Origin: a bacterium
GTDB lineage: Bacteria > Electryoneota > JAOADG01
NCBI GenBank assembly: GCA_963681965.1
Contig: OY820579.1
Location: forward strand, 3,968,001-4,032,000
Direction: 5' to 3'
DNA length: 64,000 bases
Made by a program: the position numbers and the translations under genes. Positions 23,516 to 45,900 of this stretch are shown piece after piece (position 1 is the stretch's first letter; every line of letters begins with the position of its first letter). The notes under the pieces were generated by a model. The model made no database searches. It saw only the letters and a list, made by a program, of their open reading frames with translations, and was not told the origin of the DNA.

Positions 23516-25876
23516 ATGGCAATGTACACACTTGAATTGGAGTCGTCGATGCCAAAGAGAATCCTCTGTTTGATTAATACTTTCCTCATTTTGATCGTAA
23601 GCTTGTCGATCTTCGATTCGATGGTATTGGCTCAGGATAGTTCGGGCGTACGTTGTATTCAGCGAATAGTCAATAACAGGTCGGTTAACTTAATAGCTAG
23701 CAATGGCAATTATCTCTGTGCTTTAGTCAATAATCAAGTAAAGATTTTCGATATATCCATTCCGAACCACCCACACGAGATATCTTCGATTCCAATTATT
23801 GGTGACGTAAAAAAATTTATCTTAACATCGAACCGACTTTATCTTGCAAATGATTTCGATGGTATCCGGATTTACAGTCTTACCGATCCATATAACCCTG
23901 CATTGATTACTACCTATCGATTACCAGATACTGCGATAGACATGGCTCTTCAAAACGATCATTTGTATCTAAATATCCATGAACACGGTCTATTAATTAT
24001 CGACGTTGGAGATTCCCAGAATCTTAGATTGTTGGGTAGCTTGGATAGTATCAATTTTGCATATTTTGTGGTGTCAGGTAGATATCTTTATGGAGTTGGA
24101 TGCTGTCTTTGGACTTATGATATCTCAAATCCCGACAGTATACAGCTCATGTCGGAATATGAACTTCCCTACACTTGGGTTTTGGTATCCATCACAAAAG
24201 TCGGATCAAACGTCTATTTAGGGGGTCAAGGAACAGCTTGGTATACTTGTTTCGGCATCTTGATCGGCATCGATGTTTCCGATCCAACTAATCCTGTTGA
24301 GCGCGGTCGTTTTTATGAACCAGCTCAAGGCTCAAGAGAGCAATTGAATTCATATAGTAACATCAACCAAGTAACAAACATTGGAAATAACGTTGTCGTT
24401 TCGGCAGAAATATCCGAACGACAGTACAATGGTTCCTTCAGAACTTCCAATATTGTACAGATCTTGGATATTACAAATCCAGACAGCATCGAATCGAGTT
24501 GGGGAGTGACTTTATACTCCGACACGACATACTACCGGAGTAGAGCTGTTCGTGAGTTATCGGTAACCGAAAGCACTATCTATTGTGCCGAAGGCGAACT
24601 TGGACTCGCGAGTATTCCCACAAGAACAAATTCCTATTCTACGAGTGTACTCTCTTTTCAACCTCGATTGATCACTCACATCGGAAATTATCTCGTTGCT
24701 TCCACCAATAACCAAATCAGCATCTCCGATATCTCTGATCCGGCTCATGCAAGTTTGGATGCTCTCATCGATGTATCGGATTCGATCGAATTTTTGGGAT
24801 CCTTCAACAATACATTACTACTTGGAACGGCACATCGTGATTCTTTATCTGCGATAAATCATGAGATGGTGTTGTATAACTTATCCAACATCAATACACC
24901 GGTCCACCTGAGTAATTGTGAGGTTCCAGCACAAATACAGGATATCGCAATCGACGGCGCTTATGCATATGTTGCCACTGGTGATTCTGGAATGAAAATC
25001 GTAAATATTGCCAACCCACAATCGATACAGATTACTGGATCCATGCCGGTACCAACCGATCAGCTTGAAATCAGTGATCACTATTTATTCGCATTGAACA
25101 AGCATCAATTCCGGAGTTATCGATTGACGGATCCGATTCATCCCGAACTTATCAGCGAATTTTCGGATACGTCGCTGGTTTTTCGTAATCTTGCTGTGAT
25201 CGGCAACCGGCTCTATTATTGCGAGGCAAGTTCCATTTATCATCCCGACCAGAATTACTATAACTCTCAAGCGTTTATTAGAGAATTTAACATCTCCGAT
25301 CCAACCCATCTTGTTCCGATGCGAAGTTATATGTTGGCGGAGTATAATTCAGCCTATCACGCTTTTCTGAATGCCAGATTTCTTATCCCAGCGAGCACAC
25401 ACTTATTCTATCAATCCGATTTTTTGGGAACGATAAATATATTAGATCTTACCCGACCCGATAGCATCAGACGATGTGGTTATTATCATACAAACGGATA
25501 TGGTTCCACTGTGATTGGTAACAATATTTTCTTGACGAGAGATTATTCTATTGACCTCTTTGACTGTTCCCAAGCACTCGGCGTAGTCGATCACCGATCC
25601 GAATCTATTCCGACCACCTTCGCACTCAAACCGAATAACCCGAACCCTTTCAACGCCACAACTGAGATTCACTACACGATTCCAGCGACCGCAAAAGTCG
25701 AGTTAAAAGTATTCGATCTGACCGGGCGCGAGGTTGCAAAGTTAGTCGATTTCAATCAGAATCCGGGCGAGTACACTTACCATTTCGACGGCAAAGCGCT
25801 TGCCTCCGGCACCTATTTTGTGAGGTTGAAAGTAGGTGCTTTCATGCAAACGCAGAAAATAATTTTATTGAAGTAA
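23516..25876 (+). CDS. LVIVD-repeat secreted protein with T9SS type-A C-terminal sorting domain
   Basis: Repeated (I/V)xD(I/V)S(N/D)P units (GLLIIDVGD, GMKIVNIANP); C-terminal PNPFNA...SGTYFVRL...KIILLK. Start may instead be ATG 23549. Confidence 0.82.
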   Translation: MAMYTLELESSMPKRILCLINTFLILIVSLSIFDSMVLAQDSSGVRCIQRIVNNRSVNLIASNGNYLCALVNNQVKIFDISIPNHPHEISSIPIIGDVKKFILTSNRLYLANDFDGIRIYSLTDPYNPALITTYRLPDTAIDMALQNDHLYLNIHEHGLLIIDVGDSQNLRLLGSLDSINFAYFVVSGRYLYGVGCCLWTYDISNPDSIQLMSEYELPYTWVLVSITKVGSNVYLGGQGTAWYTCFGILIGIDVSDPTNPVERGRFYEPAQGSREQLNSYSNINQVTNIGNNVVVSAEISERQYNGSFRTSNIVQILDITNPDSIESSWGVTLYSDTTYYRSRAVRELSVTESTIYCAEGELGLASIPTRTNSYSTSVLSFQPRLITHIGNYLVASTNNQISISDISDPAHASLDALIDVSDSIEFLGSFNNTLLLGTAHRDSLSAINHEMVLYNLSNINTPVHLSNCEVPAQIQDIAIDGAYAYVATGDSGMKIVNIANPQSIQITGSMPVPTDQLEISDHYLFALNKHQFRSYRLTDPIHPELISEFSDTSLVFRNLAVIGNRLYYCEASSIYHPDQNYYNSQAFIREFNISDPTHLVPMRSYMLAEYNSAYHAFLNARFLIPASTHLFYQSDFLGTINILDLTRPDSIRRCGYYHTNGYGSTVIGNNIFLTRDYSIDLFDCSQALGVVDHRSESIPTTFALKPNNPNPFNATTEIHYTIPATAKVELKVFDLTGREVAKLVDFNQNPGEYTYHFDGKALASGTYFVRLKVGAFMQTQKIILLK

Positions 25877-26266: not shown

Positions 26267-26298
26267 GAAAAACGGGAGACTGCGATGAGCCTCCCGTT
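26267..26298 (-). terminator. Hairpin between convergent genes, probable terminator of the Mgl operon
   Basis: AACGGGAG-12nt-CTCCCGTT with an adjacent A-run (T-run on the minus strand). Confidence 0.55.
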
Positions 26299-26355: not shown

Positions 26356-27609
26356 TTAATCGTCGATAAAAAACTGGCGCGACGATTTCATCACTTTATC
26401 CCACAAGAATGTACCACGCTCGATTCCGAAAATGAATAGATAATTGTCGATGTGGACGCGTGCCGACTTCCACGAAGTCAGTTGCGCCACTTTATTTACC
26501 CAATTATCGTACTCCGCCTCATTGCGCGTTCGCAACGCCATCATCAACGCTTTTCGATTCGTCTGATCGAGGAATGTCTCTTTCCACGTCCCCTTCGGTT
26601 CGAAGACTGCGCCTACTTTCGGTGCTGCCGGTGCTGCCGGAGCAGTTGGTGCTTGTGGTGGAGTTGCCGCTACCGGAGCGGGTTTCGGTGGTTCCGGCAC
26701 GGGTGCTGCCGGTTTCGGAGCCATGGCTGGAGGTGGTGTCATCGCCGGTGGCTTCACTGCCGGAGTTGCCACTGGTGCCGGTCGCGGTGGTGGCGGTGGC
26801 GGCGGAACCGGACGTGTTGGTGTGGAAACACCTAATCCAAACGCATCATCTTCATCGATCTTGGCTGGCTCTGGCGGCTTCGCTGTCATCGGTGGCGGTG
26901 TCTGCGCTGGTGCCGGTCGTGCCGCTGGTGCAGGTGCCTGTGCAGGTGCTGCCGGCATTACCGATTCCAGCGGTTCTTCGGTCGTCGTGCTCAGGTCGTG
27001 GAACGAACCACCCGAAATCATCTTGCGGGTGACAACGTAATCTTTCCGCAATGCATTATAGCGCGCCATAATCAGCGCGAGATCGTCGACACCGATCGCA
27101 TTCATTCCGAGCGATTCTTCCAACCGCACCACATCGGCAAGCACTTTCACTTCCGACATATTCAACACGGTGGCGATCACACCGGGTTCCAGCGTCGTTC
27201 CACTGAAACCAAGACCAGTCGCGCGTTCGAAGACCTGTTTTGCCAAATCGATCGAATCGGCTTCCAACCCGCGCAAATCGATCGGGTTGTCCGACCAGGT
27301 TGTACGCACTTGATCGAATGACTTTCCAACCGCTTCCTGCAATTCATTTTGCGAAAAGGTGAACGCATTGAGAATCGCTTCGACGACTGCTTCACGCGTT
27401 TTGGCATCGACCAATGCAACATCGAATTGCGGGAGTGTCAGCAAGCGATCGATTTCGGCTTCTACCGACTCTTTCGCTTTCGCCGACAGTCGGTCGCGCA
27501 CCTCAGGCGACTTGTTCCATTGCGTCAATTCGCGGTACGGAAGACTCGCTCTCCCTTTCAGTAAATCGTCGATCCAGCCGGCAGGTACGGTTTGTTGTGA
27601 CACGCCCAT
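26356..27609 (-). CDS. Hypothetical protein: helical N-domain, Pro/Ala-rich linker, small helical C-domain
   Basis: GGAGG RBS upstream; last gene of the Mgl operon; long PAPA/PPPP-type linker. Confidence 0.8.
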   Translation of the reverse strand: MGVSQQTVPAGWIDDLLKGRASLPYRELTQWNKSPEVRDRLSAKAKESVEAEIDRLLTLPQFDVALVDAKTREAVVEAILNAFTFSQNELQEAVGKSFDQVRTTWSDNPIDLRGLEADSIDLAKQVFERATGLGFSGTTLEPGVIATVLNMSEVKVLADVVRLEESLGMNAIGVDDLALIMARYNALRKDYVVTRKMISGGSFHDLSTTTEEPLESVMPAAPAQAPAPAARPAPAQTPPPMTAKPPEPAKIDEDDAFGLGVSTPTRPVPPPPPPPRPAPVATPAVKPPAMTPPPAMAPKPAAPVPEPPKPAPVAATPPQAPTAPAAPAAPKVGAVFEPKGTWKETFLDQTNRKALMMALRTRNEAEYDNWVNKVAQLTSWKSARVHIDNYLFIFGIERGTFLWDKVMKSSRQFFIDD

Positions 27610-27631: not shown

Positions 27632-29560
27632 CTACGAATTCGGATGTTTAGTTTGATATTTATCGCGAATTGATTCTAATTGAAGTATGTCTAGATGATC
27701 GACGCCGACATAAGCCACGATCTCGACCCCTTGCGCGACTTCCTTCTCATTGACCCCTTTCAGGATCTGCATCACGCATTCGATCGGAACTTGCGTCTCC
27801 GGCATTCCCATCTCGAGAATGAATCCTTCCAACCGGCGGAATTGTCGGATCACCAATTCCCAGCGGCGTTTGATCGGCATTCCGTCGATATATTCCATAA
27901 AAGACGATTTGAGATTGGCATCGGAATAACCGGTCTGAATGGTTTGCGAAAGAATCGTCCGAAATTCCGGATCGATCTGATCGCGGGTAATAATTTCGTG
28001 CAATGCAGCTTCGATCGATTGATAGTTCGTTAATCGATTGCAGAACGCTGTCAATGTCGGTAATGGTTCCAGAACCAGTCCGATTTCCAATGCAATCGCG
28101 CGCCGAACGAGTTCCATCCATTCCCGTTTCGTTACCATCCGCTTCTTCGCCAGATGATTGCGCAACTGCATCAGGATCGATCTGCTCTCTTCGTCATGCA
28201 GATCGAAGGCATGCGTCAATTTTCCGATCGTGCCGTCGACATCTTCGGTCATCATCAAAACGACCCAGCTCCCAATTCGCGGAGGTATTTTCGCCATCGG
28301 AATTTTATCGATCGGAAGCGATTCGACTTTATCCTGCCAACTCTCCTTGGCAAGGTCGTGCATCTTGACAAATAGCTCGGCAATTCGCTCGGTCGTTCGA
28401 AAATCCTGCATCTCCTCGCGATGTTCGCGTACTTCCGGTTTATTTGCCGGACGTTCCGCTACTGCCGGCGGGGGGGTACGCGGTTGCATAACCGGTTGCG
28501 GTGCCGGTTGAGCTGCGGGTTGCGGCATCGGATGCACCGGCGGCGGAGTGGGAGCGGAAACCGGCATCGGTTGGCGCGCGGTTTTCGATTGAATCGTTTC
28601 CGCCGACAACGGCGCTGCGAACGAGAAGCGTTTGGATTCCGAAACTGGTTCCTGCAATTCCTGCGGAGCAATTTCATCGAGTGCCGAAAAGGTCTCGATC
28701 GGCGGTGTCGTCACTTCGGGTTTTCGATACGGCGTGTTGATCGACGTCTTCTTGATACTGGTAACCGGTTCGATGAATTCGATGTCGTTGTTTTCGATGT
28801 CGTCTTCACCGAGTAATTCATCGGAAGCACTCGCTTCGTCCGATACGCGCGCCGCATCGATGACCAGCGTTTGCCATTGCTTGCCGATCGTCTTTTGGGT
28901 GCGGACATACGGACCGACCGTAAATTTTCCGCCGGGCCATTGAAACATTTCGTAGAAGGCATCGACACCGACATTCGCAACCGTTTTCGCGTGGATGATG
29001 ATACCATTGTCGATTGCGATGATTCCTTCATTGCGACCGGAATTCACTTTCAACGTAGATTTTCGACCGCTGATTCCGAGTAGCTGAATCACCTCCGCCA
29101 TGTGCAGTTGTCCGACAATCCCCTCGAATCCACTCTTATCCTTATCGGAAAGAATGTTGGTTACTTCGCGTCGCAGCAATTCGAAATCGAATGGTTTCTC
29201 GATATAGTGTACTGCGCCGAGTCCGTAACTTCGGGTACGCAACTCGGGGCTGGAGAATCCGGTCATGACGATGAATTTGATATTGGGATGTTCTTGCTGC
29301 ACCCGCACCATTAAATCCAAACCGGACAGATTCGGCATTCGGATATCGGTGATAATTACTTCGACTTCAGGATTTTCCCGAATGATACTCTCGACTTCCA
29401 ACGGGTCGGTAGAATAAAGCGTCTCGATATTTTCGTCGATCGAGTCGAATAGTCCCCGCAACGCGAGTACGATATCCTCCTCGTCGTCGACGACGATAAT
29501 TTTATGGAGGGGAACGTCTTGATCGTTCGGGTCCGGAATTTTTCTCAGTCGATTTGGCAT
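27632..29560 (-). CDS. Response regulator: REC + DUF4388/PATAN-like + Pro-rich linker + helical C-domain
   Basis: IIVVDD...IITDIRMP...MTG...EKPF (intact REC); GFEGIVGQLHMAEVIQL...GIIIHA...GVDAFYEMFQWPGGKF (DUF4388 pattern); TAATG overlap with mglB. Confidence 0.85.
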   Translation of the reverse strand: MPNRLRKIPDPNDQDVPLHKIIVVDDEEDIVLALRGLFDSIDENIETLYSTDPLEVESIIRENPEVEVIITDIRMPNLSGLDLMVRVQQEHPNIKFIVMTGFSSPELRTRSYGLGAVHYIEKPFDFELLRREVTNILSDKDKSGFEGIVGQLHMAEVIQLLGISGRKSTLKVNSGRNEGIIAIDNGIIIHAKTVANVGVDAFYEMFQWPGGKFTVGPYVRTQKTIGKQWQTLVIDAARVSDEASASDELLGEDDIENNDIEFIEPVTSIKKTSINTPYRKPEVTTPPIETFSALDEIAPQELQEPVSESKRFSFAAPLSAETIQSKTARQPMPVSAPTPPPVHPMPQPAAQPAPQPVMQPRTPPPAVAERPANKPEVREHREEMQDFRTTERIAELFVKMHDLAKESWQDKVESLPIDKIPMAKIPPRIGSWVVLMMTEDVDGTIGKLTHAFDLHDEESRSILMQLRNHLAKKRMVTKREWMELVRRAIALEIGLVLEPLPTLTAFCNRLTNYQSIEAALHEIITRDQIDPEFRTILSQTIQTGYSDANLKSSFMEYIDGMPIKRRWELVIRQFRRLEGFILEMGMPETQVPIECVMQILKGVNEKEVAQGVEIVAYVGVDHLDILQLESIRDKYQTKHPNS

Positions 29561-30057
29561 TAAAGATCCAGCGGCTCGTCACCGCCCCCCCGTATGGCGT
29601 CGACAATATCCTTCCACTTTCCCTTCTGAGGATCGATATCGGCGTCAGCCTGTTGACTTCGTTCAGTAATGATTTCGCCGATTTGCAGCGCAATCTTCTC
29701 CGAATACATTTTCACCATTCCCAATGTGGTTGCTTCATTGAAGATCGCAACCAGCAGATGATCGGTAGTCAATTTTACGACAAATATTCCGTTCTTTTCC
29801 CCTTTCCAGAACGTCGATTCGAAATTCGTTTCGCCGGCAACTTTCGCCGTTTCCTTGGCGGCGCCGAACGAAGCGGCGATCAGGGTTGCCAATCCGATCG
29901 GATCGGTCAGCTCGCTCGAACCGACTCGGGCATAGATATAGCCATCCTCACCGATCAACAGCGCCGTCGAAGCTTGTGCCTCTTCGATCAGTACCGTGAG
30001 ACAGGTGGTTATGACTACAAGAGTCGATTCGTCGATGGTCGTGTCGCGGATAATCAC
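29560..30057 (-). CDS. mglB: Roadblock/LC7 protein, MglB-like GTPase-activating protein
   Basis: ALLIGEDG, LATLIAASFGAAKETAKVAGE, LLVAIFNEATTLGMVK; directly downstream of mglA. Confidence 0.8.
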   Translation of the reverse strand: MIIRDTTIDESTLVVITTCLTVLIEEAQASTALLIGEDGYIYARVGSSELTDPIGLATLIAASFGAAKETAKVAGETNFESTFWKGEKNGIFVVKLTTDHLLVAIFNEATTLGMVKMYSEKIALQIGEIITERSQQADADIDPQKGKWKDIVDAIRGGGDEPLDL

Positions 30058-30059
30058 GG

Positions 30060-30827
30060 TTACTTGCCCTTACCGAATAACCGACCAAGCCATGCGAACA
30101 TGCCGGGTTTCTTAGCCGGAGCTGCCGCTTTTTCTTCCGGTTTGGCTGCCGGTGCACTCTTCGGTTTTCCGATCGTGGTCGATGGTGTCGGCGGCACTTC
30201 GGGTGCTGGTGCCGATGCTGCAGCAGCATCGACTTCGGCGAAAATTGTTCGTTTGAAATCTTCAATCACACAGGTAGTGATCGCTTTCAACGTATCGAAT
30301 ACCCCTTGTCCGGTCAGCGCTACCGCCTCGACAAACGGCAATCCCTTCGAATTCAATTCGATATTAAGAATATCGAGTGGAATTACGCCTGGGATGTCAC
30401 GCTTGTTGAATTGAAACACGAGTGGAATCGTATCGGGATTCATTTTCAGTTCGCGCAAGTTCGCCATCAAATTTTCGAGACTCTCTTTGTTCTCGGCGAT
30501 TTTTCCATGCTGCGAATCGGCAACGAAAACGATGCCGTCTGCACCCTGCAACACGAGTTTCCGCGACTGGTTGTAATAAACCTGACCCGGAACGGTGAAG
30601 AGTTGCATGCGCAACGAAAATCCCTTCACTTTTCCGATTTCCAGTGGAAGTAAGTCGAAGAACAACGTGCGATCCTGCTGGGTTGCAACTGAAGACAATT
30701 CGCCTCGTTTATCGGCGGGTAGCATTCGATGAATCGTCTGAAGATTCGTGGTTTTACCGCATAGCCCCGGTCCGTAATAAACGATTTTACATTCTAATTC
30801 GCGTTTTGCATAATTGATGGTTGCCAT
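30060..30827 (-). CDS. mglA: MglA small Ras-like GTPase with C-terminal extension
   Basis: INYAKRELECKIVYYGPGLCGKTTNL, DRTLFFD, TVPGQ, FNKRD, EAVA; ATG 30827 follows an AGAGG RBS. Confidence 0.93.
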   Translation of the reverse strand: MATINYAKRELECKIVYYGPGLCGKTTNLQTIHRMLPADKRGELSSVATQQDRTLFFDLLPLEIGKVKGFSLRMQLFTVPGQVYYNQSRKLVLQGADGIVFVADSQHGKIAENKESLENLMANLRELKMNPDTIPLVFQFNKRDIPGVIPLDILNIELNSKGLPFVEAVALTGQGVFDTLKAITTCVIEDFKRTIFAEVDAAAASAPAPEVPPTPSTTIGKPKSAPAAKPEEKAAAPAKKPGMFAWLGRLFGKGK

Positions 30828-30858: not shown

Positions 30859-31212
30859 TTACTCTCGTGAATAATTGCCAATACTATCCAATCGCGTTTG
30901 AAGCGAACCGGCAAGTGCCAGTAGCTGACCGTAATTGGCGTTGGGTTCGGTTATTGCCGTTAGCAGCACCGAACCGCCATCGACGGTCACGACCGTTCGA
31001 TCGTCCAACGTCAGCAGCATCGTGCGGTAGTTGTCGTCGTCGATCTGCGCCAATGCGGTTCGCAAATCGTTGGCATAATTCGCCAGCCGCGGACCCAAGT
31101 GGTCGGTCTTCGATTCCGGAAAATGCTCGATCACAATTCCATCCCGGTCGATTAACTCGACTTCAAGGATGCCGTCCGCTGTAATAAAACTATTGAAAAA
31201 AGAATTCTTCAT
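30859..31212 (-). CDS. Roadblock/LC7 protein (second copy)
   Basis: DGILEVELIDRDGIVI...LLTAITEPNANYGQL roadblock pattern. Confidence 0.72.
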   Translation of the reverse strand: MKNSFFNSFITADGILEVELIDRDGIVIEHFPESKTDHLGPRLANYANDLRTALAQIDDDNYRTMLLTLDDRTVVTVDGGSVLLTAITEPNANYGQLLALAGSLQTRLDSIGNYSRE

Positions 31213-31221
31213 ACCCTTAAC

Positions 31222-31596
31222 TCATAATTTGATGAGTGGTAGTAAAAAACGTGCCGTCTGCTGGCTCAGTTTCCAGGAATGATCCACTTCCGTATTCCAG
31301 CAATAGACAATCAGGTATTCGCGATAAACCAAACAATGCAATTGCGTCGATGGAAGCGATACCGAGAATTGATCGAACGCTTTCTCGGAATGCTCACTCG
31401 CGGTTCGCAATACCCGTAAGTACCGGATCGCTTGTCCGGCGACCGTCAGCTGTTCCTGACGCTCCATCGATCCGCATTGAAGAACCGGAAGTCCTACCGC
31501 CGAAACGATCATCACATGACGCATTCCCGGTTTTCCGGTAATCGTCGCAAGCACCGATTCCAGCGATTTGGGCGGAAAGAGGCGCCAGTACCACAT
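31222..31596 (-). CDS. Divergent roadblock/LC7-like protein (third copy)
   Basis: LESVLATITGKPGMRHVMIVSAVGLPVL; ATG 31596 lies 1 nt after the upstream stop. Confidence 0.6.
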   Translation of the reverse strand: MWYWRLFPPKSLESVLATITGKPGMRHVMIVSAVGLPVLQCGSMERQEQLTVAGQAIRYLRVLRTASEHSEKAFDQFSVSLPSTQLHCLVYREYLIVYCWNTEVDHSWKLSQQTARFLLPLIKL

Positions 31597-31597
31597 T

Positions 31598-32467
31598 TTA
31601 TAAGCCTTCCAGGAAATTGGTAAAGCTGCTGACTTCTTGTTCTGCCAATTGCGCAATGTCTTCAGCCTTCGTCAGCAATCCTTCCTTGTTCATCAGATGC
31701 AATCGCTCGATCGCTTTCAACCATTCGTCACCGGTTAACGATTCGCCGCGAAGTTTCGCTTCCACATTGATCGCGTGAACATAACCGCCTAATCCGCGAT
31801 CGGTCAACATTTCCGCGATATCTGTCGATATAAATTTTCCGTCCCACTCTTTATCGCGTGCAAGCAACGTGGAAATGTCGCGGACAATTTCCTTGATTCC
31901 ATTCAATGGTTGCGCTGCATACGATTTCTCGACGGCATTCGAAATCGATACTTGAAATTCCCGTCGCGAGAGTTTCAGTTGCGGTGAATCCTGCAAGAAC
32001 ATCGCGACTTGACGAAATGCCGGCACTGCCAGTCGTTCCCAATTCGACAAATATTTCAAAATGACATTCAGCGCATTTGCCGCCAATTCTCGCTTGATCA
32101 ACGTGTTTTCGCGGCGATCGAACAGCAGCTTGGTTGTCTCTTCAACCGGAGTCCAAGTAAACCGATAATAGAAATTGTAGGCTTCCCGATAAATTTTCTG
32201 CACATCTTCGAATTTCAACGGCCACGGTCGTGTCAGATGGTACTGAAGCTGCGCCATCGACTCTTGCGGACTGTCGGAATTCATCATGATCTTCACGGGA
32301 CCGAGTGCAATCTCGCCACCGAACAGTGGAGAAAACAGGATATACAGATAACTGCGGATAGTGCCGTGTGTTCGGTTGACAACGTCTTTCAGTTCCTGCT
32401 TCCCATCCTGTTGAATAATCGATCGGGTATCCTGCAGGGAAATATGTTCAATAATGCCGCTATCCAT
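31598..32467 (-). CDS. Hypothetical all-helical protein
   Basis: 289 aa, GGAG RBS, tightly packed in the operon. Confidence 0.75.
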   Translation of the reverse strand: MDSGIIEHISLQDTRSIIQQDGKQELKDVVNRTHGTIRSYLYILFSPLFGGEIALGPVKIMMNSDSPQESMAQLQYHLTRPWPLKFEDVQKIYREAYNFYYRFTWTPVEETTKLLFDRRENTLIKRELAANALNVILKYLSNWERLAVPAFRQVAMFLQDSPQLKLSRREFQVSISNAVEKSYAAQPLNGIKEIVRDISTLLARDKEWDGKFISTDIAEMLTDRGLGGYVHAINVEAKLRGESLTGDEWLKAIERLHLMNKEGLLTKAEDIAQLAEQEVSSFTNFLEGL

Positions 32468-32846: not shown

Positions 32847-34754
32847 CTATTCTTCAATATTGATCGGGATACTTGGTAACAGGAACGAAATACGATTCCA
32901 TGGCTCGTTGCGATAGGGAACAATCACTCCGCCATTCTTCTGAATCAAGCGTTGCACGGCGAACAAACCGATGTCGGTACCGCCTGCTTCGGCACGGAAG
33001 AATGGGTCGAACAAGCGCGCGAGAATTTCCGGCGACGACTTGGGACCGTTGTCGTTGAACCGGATGACGGTACCACCGCCTAAATAATTCTGGCGAATCG
33101 ATTCCAATGTAAAGACTTGCTCCGGTTCGGTCAATGCCAAACCTTCCAACGGTGCCGCTTCGATCAGGATTTCACCACCCTGATCGACACTGTCGATCGC
33201 ATGAACGAGCAGATTCAACATCGTCTGTAAAATCTGGTCGGGATTGACAAATACTTTGATATCTTGCGCTGTTTCGACATACTTCACGGAAATCTTTTTC
33301 GCGGCGATTTTACTCGACATTAATTCGAATGTTTGCGTGTGTATGCCCGATACCGAGATCAATTCGGGTTGTTCACGACTGACCCGGATTGCGGCAAAGA
33401 ACGACTGGAACAGCCGATTCAAGCGATGCACCTGACTGTTGGTTCGGTGCAGCATCTCGACCGCGGGATGATCCTTCTCCAATTTCAATTCGATCAATTG
33501 CGTCATGCCGGAAATACTAGCCAGCGGATTGCGAATATCGTGCGCGAGCGCAGATGCCAAAATTTCCATCGAAGCAAGTTGTTCCAACCGGATGCGTTCT
33601 TCCTGCATGTGCTTGATCAGCGAGATATCGCGGAAATGAATCACCGTACCGACTTTACGACCCAAGCGATTGGTCCGCGTAGTGACCGAATAGCCGATCT
33701 GAATTCGATTATAATTGATATCCACCGACAATTCGTATGTCTGCCACGGTTTATCTTCGCTCGCATGCTGCATAATCTCTTGGGCGATATTGTCGCCAAA
33801 CAGCGAACCGAGCGTCGATCCGAACACGACATCGTTATTCAAACCGATAATTTCGCGTGCCGCTTTATTCATGAATTCGAGACGACCGTTCAGATCGACG
33901 GTGATGACACCGGAATACAGCGAATCTAGAATACTGCGGCTGAACATGTGCACAGCTTCTTCCAATCGGTGCAATTGCGTAAGGTCGTGAAATACGATCG
34001 TGCGACCGCAAACGGAGCCATTTTCGTTCCGTAATTCGGTCAGCGAACATTCGATTACCATCGGACCGCGCGGTGTTTCGATATGCAGCTCGCGCGAAAG
34101 TAGAAAACTGGTGATTGGGGAATTCAGAATCAACTCTTCCGCTTCTTTTCCGAAGAGCTTGTGGAGCGGAGTATTCTGAACTTCAGTCGACTCTAGTCCG
34201 AGAGAGATAATTGCCGAACGATTGACAAAATAAACGCGACCGTTTTCCAGCACCGAGAGAATACCGATGCCGATCGAATCGATAATACTTTTTGCGTTGG
34301 TGGAGATATCGAAGGCGATCGGTTCATCCTGGGTAGAGGAGTCTGCCGTAGCCAGATCGGTTTTTCGGTCGGAGGTCGATTCCAGAGAATTGATGATATC
34401 AAGCAGCAGTTTCATCGATACGGGTCGCCGGAGCAGAAAAGAAGCACCGGTAAGATTCAAAAATTCGCGGGAATTGCGTTCGCTGTCTTCGGTAATCGCA
34501 ATCCAACTGACTGCTCCATCCGAGGGGAGACCGACTTTTTTCCGGTAAGCCCGGAGAATTTCGGTGTAGCTCATCTCGGAGGGGGGATCGTTTAAAACTA
34601 GCAGCGAAAATCGATGGCGGTTGGAAATTCCTTTCAACATCGTACCGGGAGTAGGGAAAGCACTAACGCTCCGCCCGGCATGTTCGAGGGAGCGTGCATA
34701 TTTTTCCCGTAGTTTCTCGTCTGGTTCGACTAATACAATTGAATCGATTTTCAC
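32847..34754 (-). CDS. Atypical sensor histidine kinase: pseudo-REC + 2 PAS + HisKA + degenerate HATPase
   Basis: H-box LAHDIRNPL; two PAS-like segments; altered N/G boxes NLLVHA, DNGPK, GTDIG; no TM segments seen. Confidence 0.85.
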   Translation of the reverse strand: MKIDSIVLVEPDEKLREKYARSLEHAGRSVSAFPTPGTMLKGISNRHRFSLLVLNDPPSEMSYTEILRAYRKKVGLPSDGAVSWIAITEDSERNSREFLNLTGASFLLRRPVSMKLLLDIINSLESTSDRKTDLATADSSTQDEPIAFDISTNAKSIIDSIGIGILSVLENGRVYFVNRSAIISLGLESTEVQNTPLHKLFGKEAEELILNSPITSFLLSRELHIETPRGPMVIECSLTELRNENGSVCGRTIVFHDLTQLHRLEEAVHMFSRSILDSLYSGVITVDLNGRLEFMNKAAREIIGLNNDVVFGSTLGSLFGDNIAQEIMQHASEDKPWQTYELSVDINYNRIQIGYSVTTRTNRLGRKVGTVIHFRDISLIKHMQEERIRLEQLASMEILASALAHDIRNPLASISGMTQLIELKLEKDHPAVEMLHRTNSQVHRLNRLFQSFFAAIRVSREQPELISVSGIHTQTFELMSSKIAAKKISVKYVETAQDIKVFVNPDQILQTMLNLLVHAIDSVDQGGEILIEAAPLEGLALTEPEQVFTLESIRQNYLGGGTVIRFNDNGPKSSPEILARLFDPFFRAEAGGTDIGLFAVQRLIQKNGGVIVPYRNEPWNRISFLLPSIPINIEE

Positions 34755-35376: not shown

Positions 35377-36261
35377 GTGTCTGAATCCGAATCAGCAGCC
35401 AATCGTCTTGATCAAATCTCCAATCTGCCCACTATTCCCGGAATTCTGGTTGAAATCCTCGGATCGTTGCAGGATCCCAATATTGGCTTCGATTCCTTAA
35501 AAAAAATTGTCTACAAAGATCCGCCACTCGCCGCACGGATTTTACGGATTGCCAATAGCGCTTATTTCGGAAGATCGAATCCGACCAATTCACTGGAGAC
35601 GGCTTTTTTAACGATCGGCATCAATGAATTAATCATGATTATCTCTAGCATTGGTGTCGTCAATTCGTTTGCGCAATTCGGCAATCGCTCGTTCGATCGT
35701 CGCATCCTTTGGAAACACAGCTTAATGACCGGTCTGGTTGCCCGTTATATCAGTCAAAAATTGAATCTCGGGCAGCGAACCAATAACGACGAATTCATCG
35801 CCGGACTGTTGCACGATCTGGGTCATATCATCATTTCGCACTATTTTCCAAAAGAATTCGTTCGCATTCAGGATAGTGCGAAACAAGGACTCGATCCTTT
35901 GGAAATCGAACGCTCAGAACTTGGCAACGACCATTCGGAGATCTCGGCGTTGATTGCTACCCGTTGGCGGTTCTCCGAGACGTTAGTAAATATTCTGCGG
36001 TTCCACCACACTCCTGAGCAGTTCCCCGGCGACCGAACACTGGTACGATTGATCCACTTTTCCGATCGCATTTGCAGTTGGCGACCGAGCGATGAAAAAC
36101 CGATCCCGGTAGAAAATTTGATACTGGATCCGGAATTATTGAAAATAGCATTTCCCGATGCGATACCTGAACGCCTCATTCAGTATTCATTGGCGATTCG
36201 GGAATTGCCTAAAGAAATGGAACGATTTAACGATTTAGCATCGACGATGGATATCTCGTAA
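35377..36261 (+). CDS. Stand-alone HDOD-domain protein
   Basis: LPTIP, DPPLAARILRIANSAYF, WKHS, AGLLHDLG, HSEIS, RFHH. Confidence 0.88.
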   Translation: MSESESAANRLDQISNLPTIPGILVEILGSLQDPNIGFDSLKKIVYKDPPLAARILRIANSAYFGRSNPTNSLETAFLTIGINELIMIISSIGVVNSFAQFGNRSFDRRILWKHSLMTGLVARYISQKLNLGQRTNNDEFIAGLLHDLGHIIISHYFPKEFVRIQDSAKQGLDPLEIERSELGNDHSEISALIATRWRFSETLVNILRFHHTPEQFPGDRTLVRLIHFSDRICSWRPSDEKPIPVENLILDPELLKIAFPDAIPERLIQYSLAIRELPKEMERFNDLASTMDIS

Positions 36262-36298
36262 CACGAATTCCATCTCGAGCAAATCAATTGGGTGAAAT

Positions 36299-37408
36299 AT
36301 GAATGGCACTCCCGCACGAATACTAGTAGTTGACGATGAACCGAATTTGCGCGATTTGCTCGAATCATTCTTAGTACAATTGGGTTACGAAGTTGAAACT
36401 GCTAGAGACGGTATCGAAGCGTTAGCCAAGATCGACCTCGATTTCGATTTAATGTTCCTCGATCTGATCATGCCCGGCATGGATGGCTACGAAGTCATTC
36501 AACGCGTCCGCGAAAATCCCAGCGGGATCGACCTGCCGATTATTGTGTGTACCGGTTTAACCGGTTCCGATCATCGATTGCAAGCGATCGAAATGGGTGC
36601 CAACGATATCGTGTTGAAGCCATTCGATTTCACCGAGATCCGCATCCGAGCAGCCGTACAACTCCGCGTCAAATCCGCTTTCAACGACTTGCGCCGAAAG
36701 AAAGACGATCTCGAAGCAGTAGTAACGAAACGAACGCAAGCCCTCCGCAAATCGCTGGACGACGTCGTCAATGCCGAACGGAAAGTTCGCGAAGCCTATA
36801 TCGAATCAATCTATCGACTGGTCATTGCGACGGAATATTCCGATTCCAACACCGGCTTTCATATTCAGCGGATGAGCAAATACAGTGCGCTGATCGGTCG
36901 CACTGTCGGGCTTTCGCCGGGTGACGTTGAAACCATACTCCACGCCAGCCCGATGCACGATATTGGAAAGATTGGTACTCCACAGGAAATCCTCTCGAAG
37001 CCGGGCAAACTTACCGATTCCGAGCGAAGAGTGATTCAACAGCACACGATGATCGGTTCCCAGATCCTCATTAATTCATCGGCGGCATTGCTGCAAGCCG
37101 GTTCGGAAATCGCTTTGAGTCACCACGAACGGTGGGATGGTAAAGGATACCCGCATCGTCTAGCCGGCGAAGAAATTCCGGTATTTGCACGAATTAGCGC
37201 AGTAGCCGACGTATTCGATGCACTGACGACCGAACGTCCCTATAAACCGGCAATCTCCAACGATGCCGCACTGATGCTGATGAAAAACGAACGAGGACAC
37301 CACTTCGATCCGGTCATGGTCGATGCCTTTCTGGACAATTTCGATGAAGTCGAGCATATTCAACGAACGGTTATGAACAATATTTCACCGATATTTATGT
37401 TCGAATAA
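36299..37408 (+). CDS. REC + HD-GYP cyclic-dinucleotide phosphodiesterase (RpfG-like)
   Basis: ILVVDD, FLDLIMP, KPF; MHDIGKIG, HHERWDGKGYP, VADVFDAL, RPYK. Confidence 0.92.
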   Translation: MNGTPARILVVDDEPNLRDLLESFLVQLGYEVETARDGIEALAKIDLDFDLMFLDLIMPGMDGYEVIQRVRENPSGIDLPIIVCTGLTGSDHRLQAIEMGANDIVLKPFDFTEIRIRAAVQLRVKSAFNDLRRKKDDLEAVVTKRTQALRKSLDDVVNAERKVREAYIESIYRLVIATEYSDSNTGFHIQRMSKYSALIGRTVGLSPGDVETILHASPMHDIGKIGTPQEILSKPGKLTDSERRVIQQHTMIGSQILINSSAALLQAGSEIALSHHERWDGKGYPHRLAGEEIPVFARISAVADVFDALTTERPYKPAISNDAALMLMKNERGHHFDPVMVDAFLDNFDEVEHIQRTVMNNISPIFMFE

Positions 37409-39923: not shown

Positions 39924-42900
39924 TTACTTTTGGAAATTATTACGCTGCGATTCCGCACGTGGTAATCCGGTTGATGAATGCGAAGCAGTACCGAGATCGA
40001 TGATTTCGACAATTACTCTCCCGGTACCTTTTACGGTAATACCATCGTTTCGTCGAATACTACGATCCACGTTACCTTTTTCATCGACCGTTACCGATGC
40101 ATTGACATTGATCGGCAGAATCGAAAGTGTCGGCGCGACCGAACCGCGATTCGCATCGGAAACGATTCTGCCATGACCTCGTCGGATCTGACGTACTGAC
40201 GGACTTACCGTAGTCTTGCGCTGAGTTGTCGGTATTACTTTCGGCACACTGCGGGAAACAGCGGTTACCGGAGAGATCGACAAATCGGTGCTTCCGCGGT
40301 TCTCACCCTCGGCATGTACCGAACTCGTCGAAGCGCTGCTCGAATTAATCGAGATGTGATGATACGCTGTAATACGATAATACTTGGCTGGCAACGACGA
40401 CGTATCGGTCCAAGAGGTCGATTCATTTCCAATTGTCGCAACCAAATTCGATTTACTCACAGTATCGATCGCAAAGTAACCGGTTGTTCCACGATAGACC
40501 TCATACCCGTCGAAGGTTCCGGCAGCTGCCGACCAGCTTAAAACCGATTGACGATTGTCGAGAACAATTTGCAAATTCGATGGTGAGCTGAACGGTTCAA
40601 TACCAAATCCGGATACCACGAAAGTAAATGGATTGCGTAATAAATCGTTGTTCTCAATCGAAATCGTGCCCGACGACAATCCTGCCGATGTTGGCGTGAA
40701 TCGAATGACGAAGATCGACAAACTTCCGCCGGCAATCACGGAATCGGGTTGGGTTTGAACAGAATAAGAACCAGTCGCAGTTACACGTGGCGAACCAGTT
40801 AACTGTAGCGGCGATTCACCATAATTGTAAATCTTGTATGAGATGTCGCGATACAATCCTACGAAGGTGGTATCGGTCGGAACCGACCCGCCATTTGCGA
40901 TCGCGATCAATCCTCGTCGTAATCCAATTACAGGCGCAGAAGTATTCCCCATTACTTGGAACGTGAATGGCGTATTCAACAGATCAGAACTCGGAATGAC
41001 AACTGTTCCGTACGAGACACCGTACACTGACGGTGTAAAGCGAATCGTGAACGTCGTACTTTCTCCCGGTTGAAGGATACTGGCAGATGGATACGAAGCG
41101 ATCGCAAAATCACCGGTAACAGTAACTGCCGGCGATCCCGTTAAATTCAACTCGAAATCACCGGTATTGCTGATAGTGAAGATCTCATCGACACTGTGAC
41201 CCAACGCGGTAGAATCGACAGCGACCGTCGATTCCGACGGAATTGGTACGCCACCGATCGACAGCGAGATTTGCGGGGAAAGTGCAATACAGGTCACACC
41301 AAATTCAAACGGAGAATTCAATGAATCCGAACAATTGAAACTGATTGTTCCCGATGATATACCTGCTACAGTGGGTGTAAAATGGACGTAGAATTCTGTC
41401 AGTTCACCAGGATTGACGGTATTCGCCGGTTGCAGGGAGATAGTGAAATTACCCGTCGTCGTGACAATTGGACTACCACTCAGATCCAAATGATGGTTGC
41501 CGATATTGCGAATATAGATCGGTAACTCGATCGTTTCACCGAGCAACGTCGTATCGAAAGAAACAGTTGAAAGATGATTGACAATCGTTTGCGACCCGTA
41601 CAAGACTTCAACGACCGGCGTCGCGACATATGCCGAGAGATTGAAAGTATAAGTCGGATTGAGCGTATCGTTACTAGCGATTGTCACCGATCCGGTGGCG
41701 GCACCCATCTCAGTAGGTGTAAATCGAACAACGAAATTGGCGCTTCCATTCGCACTAATCGGCGAAGTCGGTTGCGTAACCACCGAGAAGTTACCGGTCG
41801 TATGAACGGCGGGAGTTCCGGTGAGATTCAACGGCATATTACCAGTATTTCTAATCGACAAGGTAACATCGATCGGACGCCAAATCTGAGTCGTATCGAA
41901 TACCACCCGACCAGTGGATGTCGGTACTTCGGTTGTTCCCGAATACACTTCAATCGATGGTGCTCGCACATACCCCGTGACATTAAATGTATAAGGATTA
42001 TGCGTCGAATCGCTGTTAGCGATAGTAACCGTACCCGAGATATCACCCAATGCCGGCGGTGTAAACCGGATTGTCATAGTGGTACTTCCTCCGGCAACGA
42101 TCGAGGTCGTCGGTAAAGAAGTAATCCGGTATCCCGTTGGCACTGTTACTAGCGGTGTACCCGTTAAATTCAAGGTTCGGTTACCGGTGTTGAAAATCGA
42201 GAAAGTCAAATCGACATTTCGCAAAAACGTGGTTGTGTCGTAGACGACAGTTGACGATCCACTCGGAATTGCCGTTGCTCCAAGGCGCACTGCCATTACC
42301 GGTGCGGCAACATAACCCGCAAGAGTGAATGTAAACGGAGACCGAAGCGAGTCGTTGCTCAAAATTGTCGCTGTACCGTAGTTCATTCCGATGGTAGTTG
42401 GGGTAAATCGCAGAATAAATGTCGACGATCCCGCTGCTGCGATATTGATGGCAGGACGCGTAAACAGCGAGAAGTTGCCAGTAGTCGACACCAGCGGATT
42501 CCCGGTCATAGTCAATGTTTGATTACCGCCATTGAACAGACTGAGTGGCAAATCTACTGAGTGCGATAACGAAGTGGTATCGAACAGTGCTGTATCGTTT
42601 CGAGCGATATTCAGCGCGCCATCGCGCACAGAAATTTGAGGACCGTTGGCGAATCCGGTCAAATTAATCTGATACGGACTGTGCAGTGTATCGGTATTGA
42701 GAATTGATAAGGTTCCAGAATTGATTCCTGTCAATCCCGGAGTAAAGCGTACAGTAAATGTAGTCGTTCCTCCAACCGCGATCGTTGTTGCCGGTTGCGT
42801 CACTACCGAGAAACTGCCAGTTGTCGTGACAATCGGGGTTCCAGTTAAATTGAGTGCGAAATTACCGGTATTGGCAATAGTAAGTACCTGATCGACACTC

Positions 42901-45900
42901 CGTCCGACATTACAAGTATCGAAGGTCACGGTACCTGATCCCGAAGCGATATCGGTCGTTCCACGACGTATGACCATATTCGGATTTCGACCAAATCCAG
43001 TCAAAGCGAAATTGTACGGATTCTTCGTCGCATCGTTGTTCGCAATCGAAATCGTACCGGTCTTTGCACCGGCAGATTGGGGTGAGAATCGAACAGTGAA
43101 GGTAGTACTACCGTTCACAGCCACGGGTGTAGTCGGTTGCGAGGTCACGGTGAAGTCACCAGTAGTTGCGACAATTGGAGTGCCTGTCAAGTTGAGGACT
43201 CCCGGACCGGCATTCGAAATCGTGAAAACGACATCGCTGTTTTGCATCACCCGAGTGGTATCGAAGGCAGTCGTTCCGGTATTATCGGCAATCGTTACCG
43301 TTCCTCGTTTGACCGTCATACTCGGTAATGGACTCACACGCATGGTCATCGGAACATTGTAGGGGGAATTCGATGCGTTACCGGTAAACGTTAACGTACC
43401 TACCGATGAATCACCTGTGACTCGATTGCGACCATCGAATAGCATCGAGAATGCTTGATTCGATCGACTTGGAATCGTGAAACTGGTTGTACTGGGTATC
43501 GCCCACTGAGCCGCATTCTGGAACCGAATAGCATAATTCGAAGACGGGAATGCCGCATTGTAATTCACTTGGATATACTGCGATCGATCGGCATTCTGTA
43601 CACCAATCGTTTGGCTATTTCTCGTCAAACTGGTGATCGTGCCGTATTCAAAGAAAATACGACCGTCGTTATAGAGGATAACCTCGAATGTGGCGTAAAT
43701 CGTTCCTGCGGCAGAACCGACTCGAACACCATTCCAAGCAAAAATTGCTCGATTGTTCGTTGGATCCATCAATATTTTTGTAGTGGCGGTACCATTGACG
43801 TATAAATCATCGAAATAAGGTGCAATGATCGACATAATGTTACTGTACGATCCCGCAATCGGAAAAGCGGTATTGTTGTAATCGGTAGCAGTTGTCGAAT
43901 TGAACGTTATCCAACCGTTCGTACACATCCATACCTGATTGTAAGTAGTACCATAAAATGGGAATGAGAACGGCAGCGTAAATGGACCCGAGATTGCATC
44001 GTCACCAATCGGTCCGTCAGTTCCCGTTGAGGCGTCCACCCATGAATAAGTCGGACCACCGGTTTGTGCCGAGGTAGTATATCCGAATGTTCCAAGGTAA
44101 CTACTTGAAGTCAGAGTACCGGAGAATGCTGCATCCCCGGTATTCGACAATGTGTACGTAACACGCGTCGTATCGCTGGGCGCAACATACTGAACAATCG
44201 GATTCGTCGACAAACTAATCGTTGCTGGACCGGAAACAGTGAAATTGGCATTCGAAGTATCGCCGACTGTCGGAATTAAATCGGACATCACGCGAATTCG
44301 CGCGGTCGATGACGATGGCGATGTTGGAATCCAACCGACCGTGCCGGTATTCGAAATACCTGAGAATAGTGTTTCCCAGACTCCCGAAGGGTAACTACGA
44401 TTCAATTGAACGGTAACAGTACCCGTAACCATCGAAGAAGCCCAATTGATATTGAGTGGCGTAACTCCTGACCAAGTTTCACCGCCGTTGGGTGATGACA
44501 TGATCAGTCGTGGAGATCCGATGATTGCATTGCCTTTCATCGTATCGCCTTCTGCACCGGATGGCGAGGTTACGCGGAAACGAGCCGTGTTGGAAGTTGG
44601 TGCAGTGATTGTCCAATTGATCGCTCCAGTATTCGGAGTATTGATCAGAATCCGTTCCCACGATCCTGATGGGTAACTGCGATTCAAATCGATGTTCACA
44701 TTGCTGGTGCCGAGACGACCACGCCACTGCAGCAGTGTACTCTTACCGATAGCAAGTGAATCGCCACTGACCGGTGATAGGAAATGGAACGCCGAGTCGA
44801 TTGGTGCGGTGGTTATTAACATCGCGTGATTCGATCCGGTTCCGGTCGGAATGCTACTGCTACCTGATGAGTAAGTATTCCACCAGCAATATTCCAATCC
44901 CCGGGTGTACGTACCGTCGCAGATTCCGATCGTACAGTAACTAACACCGGTTTCTCCTCCCGAGTAGACTGTCGGATTGAAGGTCTTATACTGCAATAGC
45001 ATTGGTGCATCGCCAGTCGGAGTCTGGTAATAATGCGAATCGTAGATAATGATCTGACACTCGTTCGCAGTCGGCGTCCAGAGTGTCGTGGTTTTCCAAG
45101 TAATAATGAACCGATGATTGGTCACATCCGAATAAGTATACACTCCCTCATTGGTTCCGGAATTCGTCATATCGCACCAATTCACTGCGACCATATTCCG
45201 TGGACCTTCGAAGGTCGGCAGTCGCCAGTTGCGCGAGAAATTAAAATTCGCTTGCGATCCGAACGCCAACCAATCGTTCGTACAGATTGTCACATTTGAA
45301 AAGTCGGTACCGTAGTATTTCACACCAAACGGTAGATTTACTACCACCGAAGAGTCGGTGTACTCATTGATATCGTTCATTCCCAAGCGCGTACCGGGAC
45401 CACCAAGCGCCGGAATAATTTCCACCCAACTATAGGTCGGAGCATTCGCGTAATTCAAATCGGCATCGTCGTAGATGTAATAACCGTATGCATCCGGACC
45501 AGTAGGATCGGTGGCACGTTTCGAACCGACTGTAACGTTGAATGTGATCGTATCGTAAACCGATCCGTTGGAAAATACTGCCATAAATGGTACTTGAGTT
45601 CCCGGCAGCACTTGTGAGTTGGCAAAGATCGTCCATGGCGAACTGGCATTGTTGACGTTTACTTCGATGGGTAGTGTCGCATATTGACTAGTAGCGCTCG
45701 TGACCGACACACCACTCAGCAGCGAAGTCAAAATCGCCGTGGTCGGTGTCGTTATCGCCAGACCGCTGTCGTTGTCCACCGTTACAGTTAATTGCACCGA
45801 TGTGCCGGGGATCCAAGTGCTCGAGGTAGTTGAAGAGATGTAACTCAAATCGAGCGATCGAACGATCAATGGGACGGTCACCGTACGTGACCCTTGATCG

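Follow-up and report, generated by a model that had tools for sequence, protein, structure and literature searches.

A MinD-like C-terminal segment on an MglA-family GTPase of Electryoneota, a candidate membrane tether for a Ras-like bacterial switch

Can a bacterial MglA hold on to the membrane by a part of its own? MglA is the model Ras-like polarity switch of bacteria and has been regarded as soluble, its arrival at the cell poles depending on partners only. The question is raised by the mglA gene of a bacterium of the phylum Electryoneota (lineage JAOADG01), located in a stretch of 64,000 nucleotides, here called the window (GenBank assembly GCA_963681965.1, contig OY820579.1, positions 3,968,001 to 4,032,000), the source genome of which is a single 4.24-Mb contig with a completeness of 99.9%. 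The gene (30060–30827 of the window, minus strand, as are all features described below unless marked otherwise) starts with the ATG at 30827 and encodes 255 residues plus a stop codon, its translation ending in ...PAKKPGMFAWLGRLFGKGK. About 62 of these residues count as extra, since the MglA chains of Myxococcus xanthus and Thermus thermophilus comprise 195–203 residues. As judged from sequence comparison, the window MglA probably works tethered to the membrane via its C-terminal segment. A membrane anchor is suggested because the conserved end resembles the documented membrane-targeting peptide of MinD, because this end is kept while the spacer in front of it drifts in both length and sequence, and because a hydrophobic C-terminal segment takes its place within the same lineage.

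The identity of the protein as an MglA is clear from its G-domain (residues 1–193; 30249–30827), which aligns over its full length with the M. xanthus MglA structures 6h17, 5ymx, and 6hjh (E 1.3e-66) and also matches the T. thermophilus MglA 3t12 (7.8e-64). The Pfam match is to Arf (1.2e-05), so that both the Pfam and the Protein Data Bank (PDB) matches mark the domain as Ras/Arf-like and not as the deviant Walker A ATPase domain of the ParA/MinD type. The ATG at 30827 was taken as the start because the N-terminus that it gives, MATINY, lines up with the first residue of M. xanthus MglA and of 21 homologues; a longer open reading frame (ORF), with a TTG start upstream at 30914, was judged unlikely. 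The P-loop GPGLCGKT (residues 19–26) and the NKRD motif (residues 141–144) align with those of M. xanthus MglA and are invariant in an alignment of 22 sequences, as are TVPGQ, which contains T78 and Q82, and DRTLFFD, which contains R53. The catalytic residues known from group 1 MglA are thereby retained in the G-domain; the consulted portion of PMC4316618 describes what R53 and Q82 do, and that of PMC3000849 the Thr78 peculiarity of MglA, i.e., a Thr replacing the usual Asp of the G3 motif. With the P-loop and NKxD motifs, the T78–Q82–R53 set, and an adjoining Roadblock/LC7 gene, the window protein has the features of the MglA group; in being 255 residues long and carrying a 62-residue tail it departs from the single domain of about 195 residues and no membrane element that is typical of group 1. 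No second MglA match was found in the genome with this protein as query. An AlphaFold2 model built on the 22-sequence alignment gave predicted local distance difference test scores (pLDDT) of mostly 74–96 over the G-domain and extended its last helix to residue 204.

The adjoining gene is mglB (29560–30057, GTG start), encoding a GTPase-activating protein (GAP) of the Roadblock/LC7 family (Pfam Robl_LC7, 5.8e-07; PDB MglB chains, about 3e-11; NCBIfam MglB, 1.9e-15, which is under the cut-off of that model). The TAA stop codon of mglA is followed by 2 nucleotides and then by the GTG of mglB (30055–30062).

The tail itself is composed of two parts. An Ala/Pro/Lys-rich spacer (residues ~205–241; 30105–30215) is predicted to be disordered, both from its composition and by AlphaFold2, the 44 residues preceding the terminal segment including 14 Ala, 9 Pro, 6 Lys, and 4 Glu. 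It leads into the terminal segment GMFAWLGRLFGKGK (residues 242–255; 30063–30104), a putative membrane-targeting amphipathic helix, which on a helical wheel places M, W, L, L, F, and F inside an arc of 160 degrees and G, A, G, R, G, and K on the opposite side. The hydrophobic moment of MFAWLGRLFGK is 0.59 at a mean hydrophobicity of 0.80, and the last 20 residues of the protein have a net charge of +5. On an interfacial free-energy scale, the best 11-mer of the tail sums to -4.45 kcal/mol, which only 41 of 2580 C-termini of the same genome match or beat; the MinD 10-mer scores -0.56. Neither a Cys nor a CAAX-type prenylation motif is found in residues 194–255. The targeting peptide of Escherichia coli MinD is printed as KGFLKRLFGG in the excerpted text of PMC5471200; the window segment shares RLFG with it, and the tails of the two closest homologues share KRLFG. 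The hydrophobic face at the extreme C-terminus and the flanking basic residues that are expected of a MinD-type sequence are both present. The initial annotation, in which an MglA with a Pro/Ala/Lys linker and a MinD-like amphipathic end was proposed and contrasted with a tail-less M. xanthus MglA, is thus borne out: the ORF has 255 codons, the G-domain occupies residues 1–193 with about 62 residues following it, the region assigned to the tail (30060–30240) covers residues 196–255 and the stop codon, and the aligned M. xanthus chains have 195–203 residues.

The same annotation had named in advance a lack of conservation among orthologues as a finding that would count against its proposal; the tail turned out to be conserved. 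In a set of 79 genomes of the phylum, searched at a threshold of E ≤ 1e-40, an orthologue was found in 12, with 11 of the ORFs complete and one (L006) cut by the end of its contig, and all 11 complete orthologues have a basic amphipathic C-terminal segment. The two closest homologues are 86% and 78% identical to the window protein over the G-domain, 33% and 15% over the linker, and 50% and 57% over the last 14 residues. A wider database search scored 8000 candidates, and the best 120 were sorted by a strict rule for the amphipathic C-terminus: 80 have a basic amphipathic end and 13 a transmembrane-like one (defined by a hydrophobic stretch no shorter than 19 residues), 7 lack a tail, and 20 end in some other way. 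The tail is beyond chance, since the strict rule is met by 80 of these best 120 homologues and by 1.7% (44 of 2580) of the ORFs of at least 200 residues in the source genome; it replaced an earlier, loose rule (net charge of +3 or higher with four or more FWLIM residues), for which the same genome gave a background of 12%. A search with the G-domain only, made against one representative per 50%-identity cluster, returned among its best 150 matches (all of at least 254 residues) 27 amphipathic, 19 transmembrane-like, and 104 other endings under the strict rule; clustering at 50% identity raises the share of variable-tailed proteins, and several of the 104 end in GF[FL]xxLF plus a few further residues, which the strict rule misses. 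Aligned on the first hydrophobic pair, 79 amphipathic tails have the consensus K-K-[RK]-G-F-F-[KL]-[RK]-[LR]-F-G-[IL]-K. Their spacers are rich in Pro, Ala, and Glu and span 22–237 residues with a median of 125, so that spacer length and sequence vary among homologues with the terminal motif kept; the shortest tailed protein found has 229 residues.

The tailed proteins also differ from the tail-less ones in the arrangement of their genes. From 80 named loci and the same-phylum relatives, 85 loci were classified and 8 dropped, five because the P-loop pattern failed (L009, L013, L039, L043, and L061) and three because of weak matches (L010–L012); L009, when read by hand, has an amphipathic end and a downstream mglB. 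In the tail-less loci mglB lies upstream of mglA in 52 of 55, the remaining 3 having no adjacent mglB, whereas in the tailed loci it lies downstream, in 17 of 17 with an amphipathic and 3 of 3 with a transmembrane-like end. The 10 loci with other endings comprise 9 without an adjacent mglB and 1 with a downstream mglB. When 86 G-domains were placed on a maximum-likelihood tree, 26 rows formed a group (support 93/83, under the starred threshold) that consists entirely of tailed proteins, with no tail-less row inside it: all 18 amphipathic ones, 3 transmembrane ones from Planctomycetota, and 5 with other tails, 2 of which are cut by contig ends. Its named members are from Fibrobacterota, Ignavibacteriota, Zixibacteria, one Acidobacteriota metagenome-assembled genome (MAG), and Planctomycetota. 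The Planctomycetota transmembrane subgroup within it has a support of 100/98, which suggests that the amphipathic and transmembrane-anchored MglAs belong to one lineage. Since this subgroup substitutes a C-terminal hydrophobic segment for the amphipathic end, the shared job of the two endings would be membrane attachment; the hydrophobic segment lies at most 15 residues from the C-terminus in 12 of the 13 transmembrane-like proteins of the full-length search and in 12 of the 19 of the G-domain search. The MglAs of loci from a Myxococcaceae MAG and from Cystobacter fuscus have 195 residues and stop just past the G-domain. Two genomes of the phylum, G009 (L004 and L013) and G019 (L008 and L014), carry a tailed mglA with mglB downstream together with a tail-less paralogue of about 46% identity with mglB upstream, and this coexistence suggests that tailed and tail-less MglA do different jobs.

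Further tail types were seen in the course of this comparison. One, present in Fibrobacter and others (7 proteins and locus L018), has a long linker with an acidic run and a C-terminus in ...ELRPY[IV]PK, which looks like a protein-docking motif. Another consists of an MglA with a C-terminal region of about 200–300 residues and a strand-like end of alternating hydrophobic and polar residues; it is mostly found in Acidobacteriota, forms a separate branch of the tree, and has no adjacent mglB (6 proteins; loci L062, L070, L072, and L096).

In the model suggested by these observations, the window protein would combine an MglA-family Ras-like G-domain, a flexible hypervariable spacer, and a membrane anchor, the switch being paired with its GAP, the MglB encoded 2 nucleotides downstream. 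The last 11–14 residues, with a predicted hydrophobic face (M, W, L, L, F, F), a small or basic opposite face, and flanking lysines, may form a short amphipathic helix that lies against the cytoplasmic membrane on its inner, anionic face, in the manner of the targeting peptides of MinD and FtsA, while the Ala/Pro/Lys spacer of about 40 residues would let the G-domain reach partners some nanometres off the membrane. Tethering of this kind would leave the switch only two dimensions to move in, with slower diffusion, and it is in this situation that the Ras/Rho GTPases of eukaryotes, acting with soluble regulators, build stable patches on membranes. As the output, signalling for cell polarity or surface motility is probable. 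Signalling to polarity or to pilus-based motility is suggested because the neighbours include PAS-kinase, Roadblock, and receiver-PATAN genes and because in Zixibacteria a PilB-type gene follows mglB.

It has to be noted that a number of observations weigh against the membrane-tether model or limit its reach. A helical-wheel and hydrophobic-moment calculation, which the initial annotation had proposed as a check, was favorable as regards the one-sided hydrophobic face, but a moment of 0.59 is reached by 472 of 10000 shuffles of these residues and is thus only moderately out of the ordinary, and the polar face is chiefly Gly and Ala, with R and K as its only charged residues. AlphaFold2 gives no helix or other secondary structure in residues 205–255, at pLDDT values of 46–65; a peptide that folds only on a membrane, as targeting sequences of this kind probably do, would be expected to look like this, and the model speaks neither for nor against a membrane-induced helix. 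E. coli MinD requires dimerisation for stable membrane binding, and one short helix on a monomer may bind weakly. Some members of the tailed group carry endings such as the acidic ...ELRPY[IV]PK on similar linkers; these are not membrane motifs and must bind proteins, so that docking is another role open to the tail end. The distribution of the gene is patchy, without a match in a same-genus genome (96% complete) or in a same-family genome (100% complete), and mglA is therefore accessory in the phylum. The locus table of gene order and tail class uses the loose rule with its background of 12%, and, because the tailed forms cluster on the tree, the association between tail and gene order represents one or two evolutionary events and not about 70 independent ones. 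As regards the output, the pilus ATPase genes of this genome lie elsewhere and not beside the mglA module, and co-occurrence with type IV pili is uninformative, PilT exceeding its cut-off in 78 of the 79 phylum genomes as against MglA in 12.

What else could the tail be? The terminal motif might be a short linear peptide that docks onto another protein, e.g., a Roadblock protein, a PATAN regulator, or a pilus or cytoskeletal part, the spacer then being a leash. This would agree with the absence of a predicted helix and with the acidic runs plus ELRPY[IV]PK, or the D-F-D/N-P-F-like ends, of related tailed MglAs, all of which are unfit as membrane anchors; it is rendered unlikely by a family consensus that nearly equals the MinD targeting peptide, by the Planctomycetota subgroup, where a hydrophobic C-terminal stretch no shorter than 19 residues replaces the motif, and by the retention of the motif across phyla in which the neighbouring genes differ. 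A tail without function, produced by low-complexity read-through or by an artefact of ORF calling, is barely credible: the linker is indeed of low complexity and poorly conserved, yet the frame stays open to the conserved terminal motif in all 11 complete orthologues and in many phyla, and the start of mglB 2 nucleotides past the mglA stop is a conserved arrangement.

A different possibility concerns Min-like dynamics, which the initial annotation had offered alongside direct membrane binding. The latter is well supported in comparisons by the conserved motif, the likeness to MinD, and the transmembrane substitution, whereas participation in a Min cycle is not: in the source genome no ORF comes closer to the MinD model than 127.4 bits, with the family cut-off at 212.9, MinC is likewise without a match over its cut-off, and MinE has no match at all, and there is thus no Min system for the window MglA to join. 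The best sub-threshold match to the MinD model is a 305-residue ParA/MinD-like ORF outside the window (C1:1479072-1479989, plus strand), which ends in a basic amphipathic-looking segment of its own and may be a membrane ATPase of the FlhG/MinD type. The absence of these components from a nearly complete, single-contig genome can also be turned into an argument for a self-organising pattern generator formed by MglA and MglB, with membrane binding switched by the nucleotide (the helix being hidden in MglA-GDP and freed in MglA-GTP, or else acting multivalently on effector complexes) and with MglB as the GAP, as in a Min- or Arco-like system for the selection of the division site or pole. There is a precedent in the archaeal Ras-superfamily GTPase with an amphipathic helix that drives a Min-like oscillator, as described in the available part of a preprint (10.64898/2026.07.23.738820). 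We consider such a generator distinctly improbable for the window protein, since the tail is detached from the G-domain in the AlphaFold2 model and shows no docked state, a long and variable spacer is more in keeping with passive tethering than with a switch coupled to the nucleotide, the partner is a Roadblock GAP and not a membrane-binding analogue of SepF or MinE, and the presence of the gene in 12 of 79 phylum genomes is unlike that of a core division-site system.

With the tether model retained as the most probable reading, the surroundings of the gene are as follows. Between about 34754 and 26356 the genes share one orientation and are densely packed, in the order PAS histidine kinase, a 148-residue and a 289-residue protein that both belong to no known family, 144-residue protein, 117-residue Roadblock protein, mglA, mglB, response regulator, and 417-residue protein. 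The sensor kinase at the head of the row (32847–34754) has the Pfam domains PAS, HisKA, and HATPase_c. The 289-residue protein (31598–32467) is without a Pfam or protein atlas match and has three database homologues including itself, an all-alpha AlphaFold2 model with a pLDDT of 61.8, and counterparts upstream of mglA in the loci L002–L005 of relatives (phmmer). Next to it lies a possible third Roadblock-like protein of 144 residues (31222–31656), which is only a lead: in its best protein atlas clusters (score 0.93) a minority of the members carry Robl_LC7, and its Pfam Robl_LC7 match is under threshold (E 0.098). A second Roadblock-fold protein of 117 residues, Roadblock/LAMTOR3-like (30859–31212; Pfam MAPKK1_Int, 1.9e-07, and Robl_LC7, 3.7e-06), is encoded directly upstream of mglA.

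Downstream, the ATG of a response regulator (27632–29560) overlaps the TAA of mglB by 1 nucleotide (29558–29562). The regulator is composed of a receiver, a DUF4388 (PATAN) domain, a Pro-rich region, and a C-terminal part (Pfam Response_reg, 1.3e-19; DUF4388, 7.9e-14), and a receiver-DUF4388 regulator also follows mglB in the same-phylum loci L002–L005. A DUF4388 protein is encoded directly upstream of the tailed mglA in a locus of Fibrobacterota (L020), and the consulted portion of PMC4316618 mentions PATAN genes in the vicinity of some mglA genes of groups 1 and 5. In the locus of Zixibacteria (L054), Roadblock and TPR-Roadblock genes precede the tailed mglA, and the gene for the PilB-type ATPase (447.8 bits) comes after mglB. 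The row of the window closes with the 417-residue protein (26356–27609), 3' of which a terminator-like hairpin with an 11-bp stem (26271–26298) was found in a consensus scan; the scan for promoters and terminators gave no more sites than shuffled sequence, and this hairpin alone stands out.

Several side observations may be added. In two relatives from the same phylum, at L009 (2-1180, minus strand) and L007 (2-1306, minus strand), the MglB encoded downstream of the tailed mglA continues into a strongly acidic C-terminal extension of great length; these ORFs have at least 393 residues and reach past the edge of the locus. An HDOD-domain protein and a receiver-HD (HD_5) regulator are encoded in the window at 35377–37408 (plus strand); they diverge from the mglA row and may share an intergenic control region with it. 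At 23516–25876 (plus strand) lies the gene of a 786-residue beta-propeller protein with LVIVD repeats and a C-terminal sorting domain for type IX secretion, a finding consistent with a host of the Fibrobacteres–Chlorobi–Bacteroidetes (FCB) group. An ORF of 2791 residues is found at 39924–48299 (minus strand).

In the full-text literature no account of an MglA with a membrane-targeting or transmembrane tail was found, although supplementary tables, e.g., S2 of PMC4316618, might list long forms. The main MglA survey of 2014, according to the consulted portion of the same paper (PMC4316618), left out sequences of more than 240 residues. The tailed proteins would be absent from the survey set because this cut-off would have removed them, and in that way the standard survey hid a sizeable part of the MglA family, the tailed lineage being widespread and phylogenetically coherent. 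If the tether model is correct, the dynamics of MglA are to be modelled with two-dimensional and not with three-dimensional diffusion, and the tailed proteins would be both a natural equivalent, in bacteria, of the hypervariable region and anchor of Ras and a simple system to probe how tethering shapes GTPase patterning. A still broader proposal, which we regard as doubtful, would be that of a bacterial MglA lineage with a Ras-type plan, of independent or ancient origin, in phyla of the FCB group and with a transmembrane version in Planctomycetota; together with MglB and Roadblock proteins, it might form a membrane-bound, self-organising polarity system comparable with Cdc42/Rho patches or with Rag-Ragulator, perhaps patterning cells without MinCDE.

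Among the known systems, the closest is the MglA–MglB pair of M. xanthus and T. thermophilus, with which the window locus shares the G-domain of residues 1–193, the P-loop, R53, T78, Q82, NKRD, and an adjoining gene for a Roadblock-fold MglB. It differs from that pair in that the latter's MglA has about 195 residues and no tail, whereas the window MglA adds a spacer and a putative membrane anchor, and in that mglB is downstream and not upstream of mglA as in loci of the M. xanthus/T. thermophilus type. A 2026 preprint, in its available part, terms bacterial MglA "cytosolic".

The archaeal ArcoA of the Arco oscillator, as far as the same portion of 10.64898/2026.07.23.738820 describes it, resembles the window protein in being a prokaryotic Ras-superfamily GTPase with a membrane-binding amphipathic helix of its own. 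In ArcoA, this helix is N-terminal, the partner is SepF-like, and a role in FtsZ placement has been shown by experiment, whereas the candidate helix of the window MglA is C-terminal and known from its sequence; neither an N-terminal amphipathic helix nor a SepF-like partner was found here, the neighbours being Roadblock, PATAN-receiver, and PAS-kinase genes.

With the targeting sequence of MinD, the terminal segment has in common that it is short, lies at the extreme C-terminus, and has basic residues before a Phe/Leu-rich amphipathic stretch that includes RLFG. The carriers differ, one being a ParA/MinD ATPase and the other a Ras-like GTPase of the TRAFAC class, and MglA is not known to undergo a nucleotide-driven dimerisation by which it could bind cooperatively in the manner of MinD. 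The window tail further differs in the spacer of about 40 residues before the motif (up to 237 in relatives) and in its six large hydrophobic residues including a Trp, as compared with four in the MinD peptide.

Finally, the order of parts in the window protein is that of eukaryotic Ras, Rho, and Rab, i.e., a G-domain followed by a disordered variable linker and a C-terminal basic membrane-binding element. The anchor in the eukaryotic proteins is a lipid, whereas in the window MglA, with its tail free of Cys and CAAX, it would be a peptide helix and in some relatives a transmembrane segment, so that the comparison is best understood as an analogy of mechanism and not as one of common descent of the tail.

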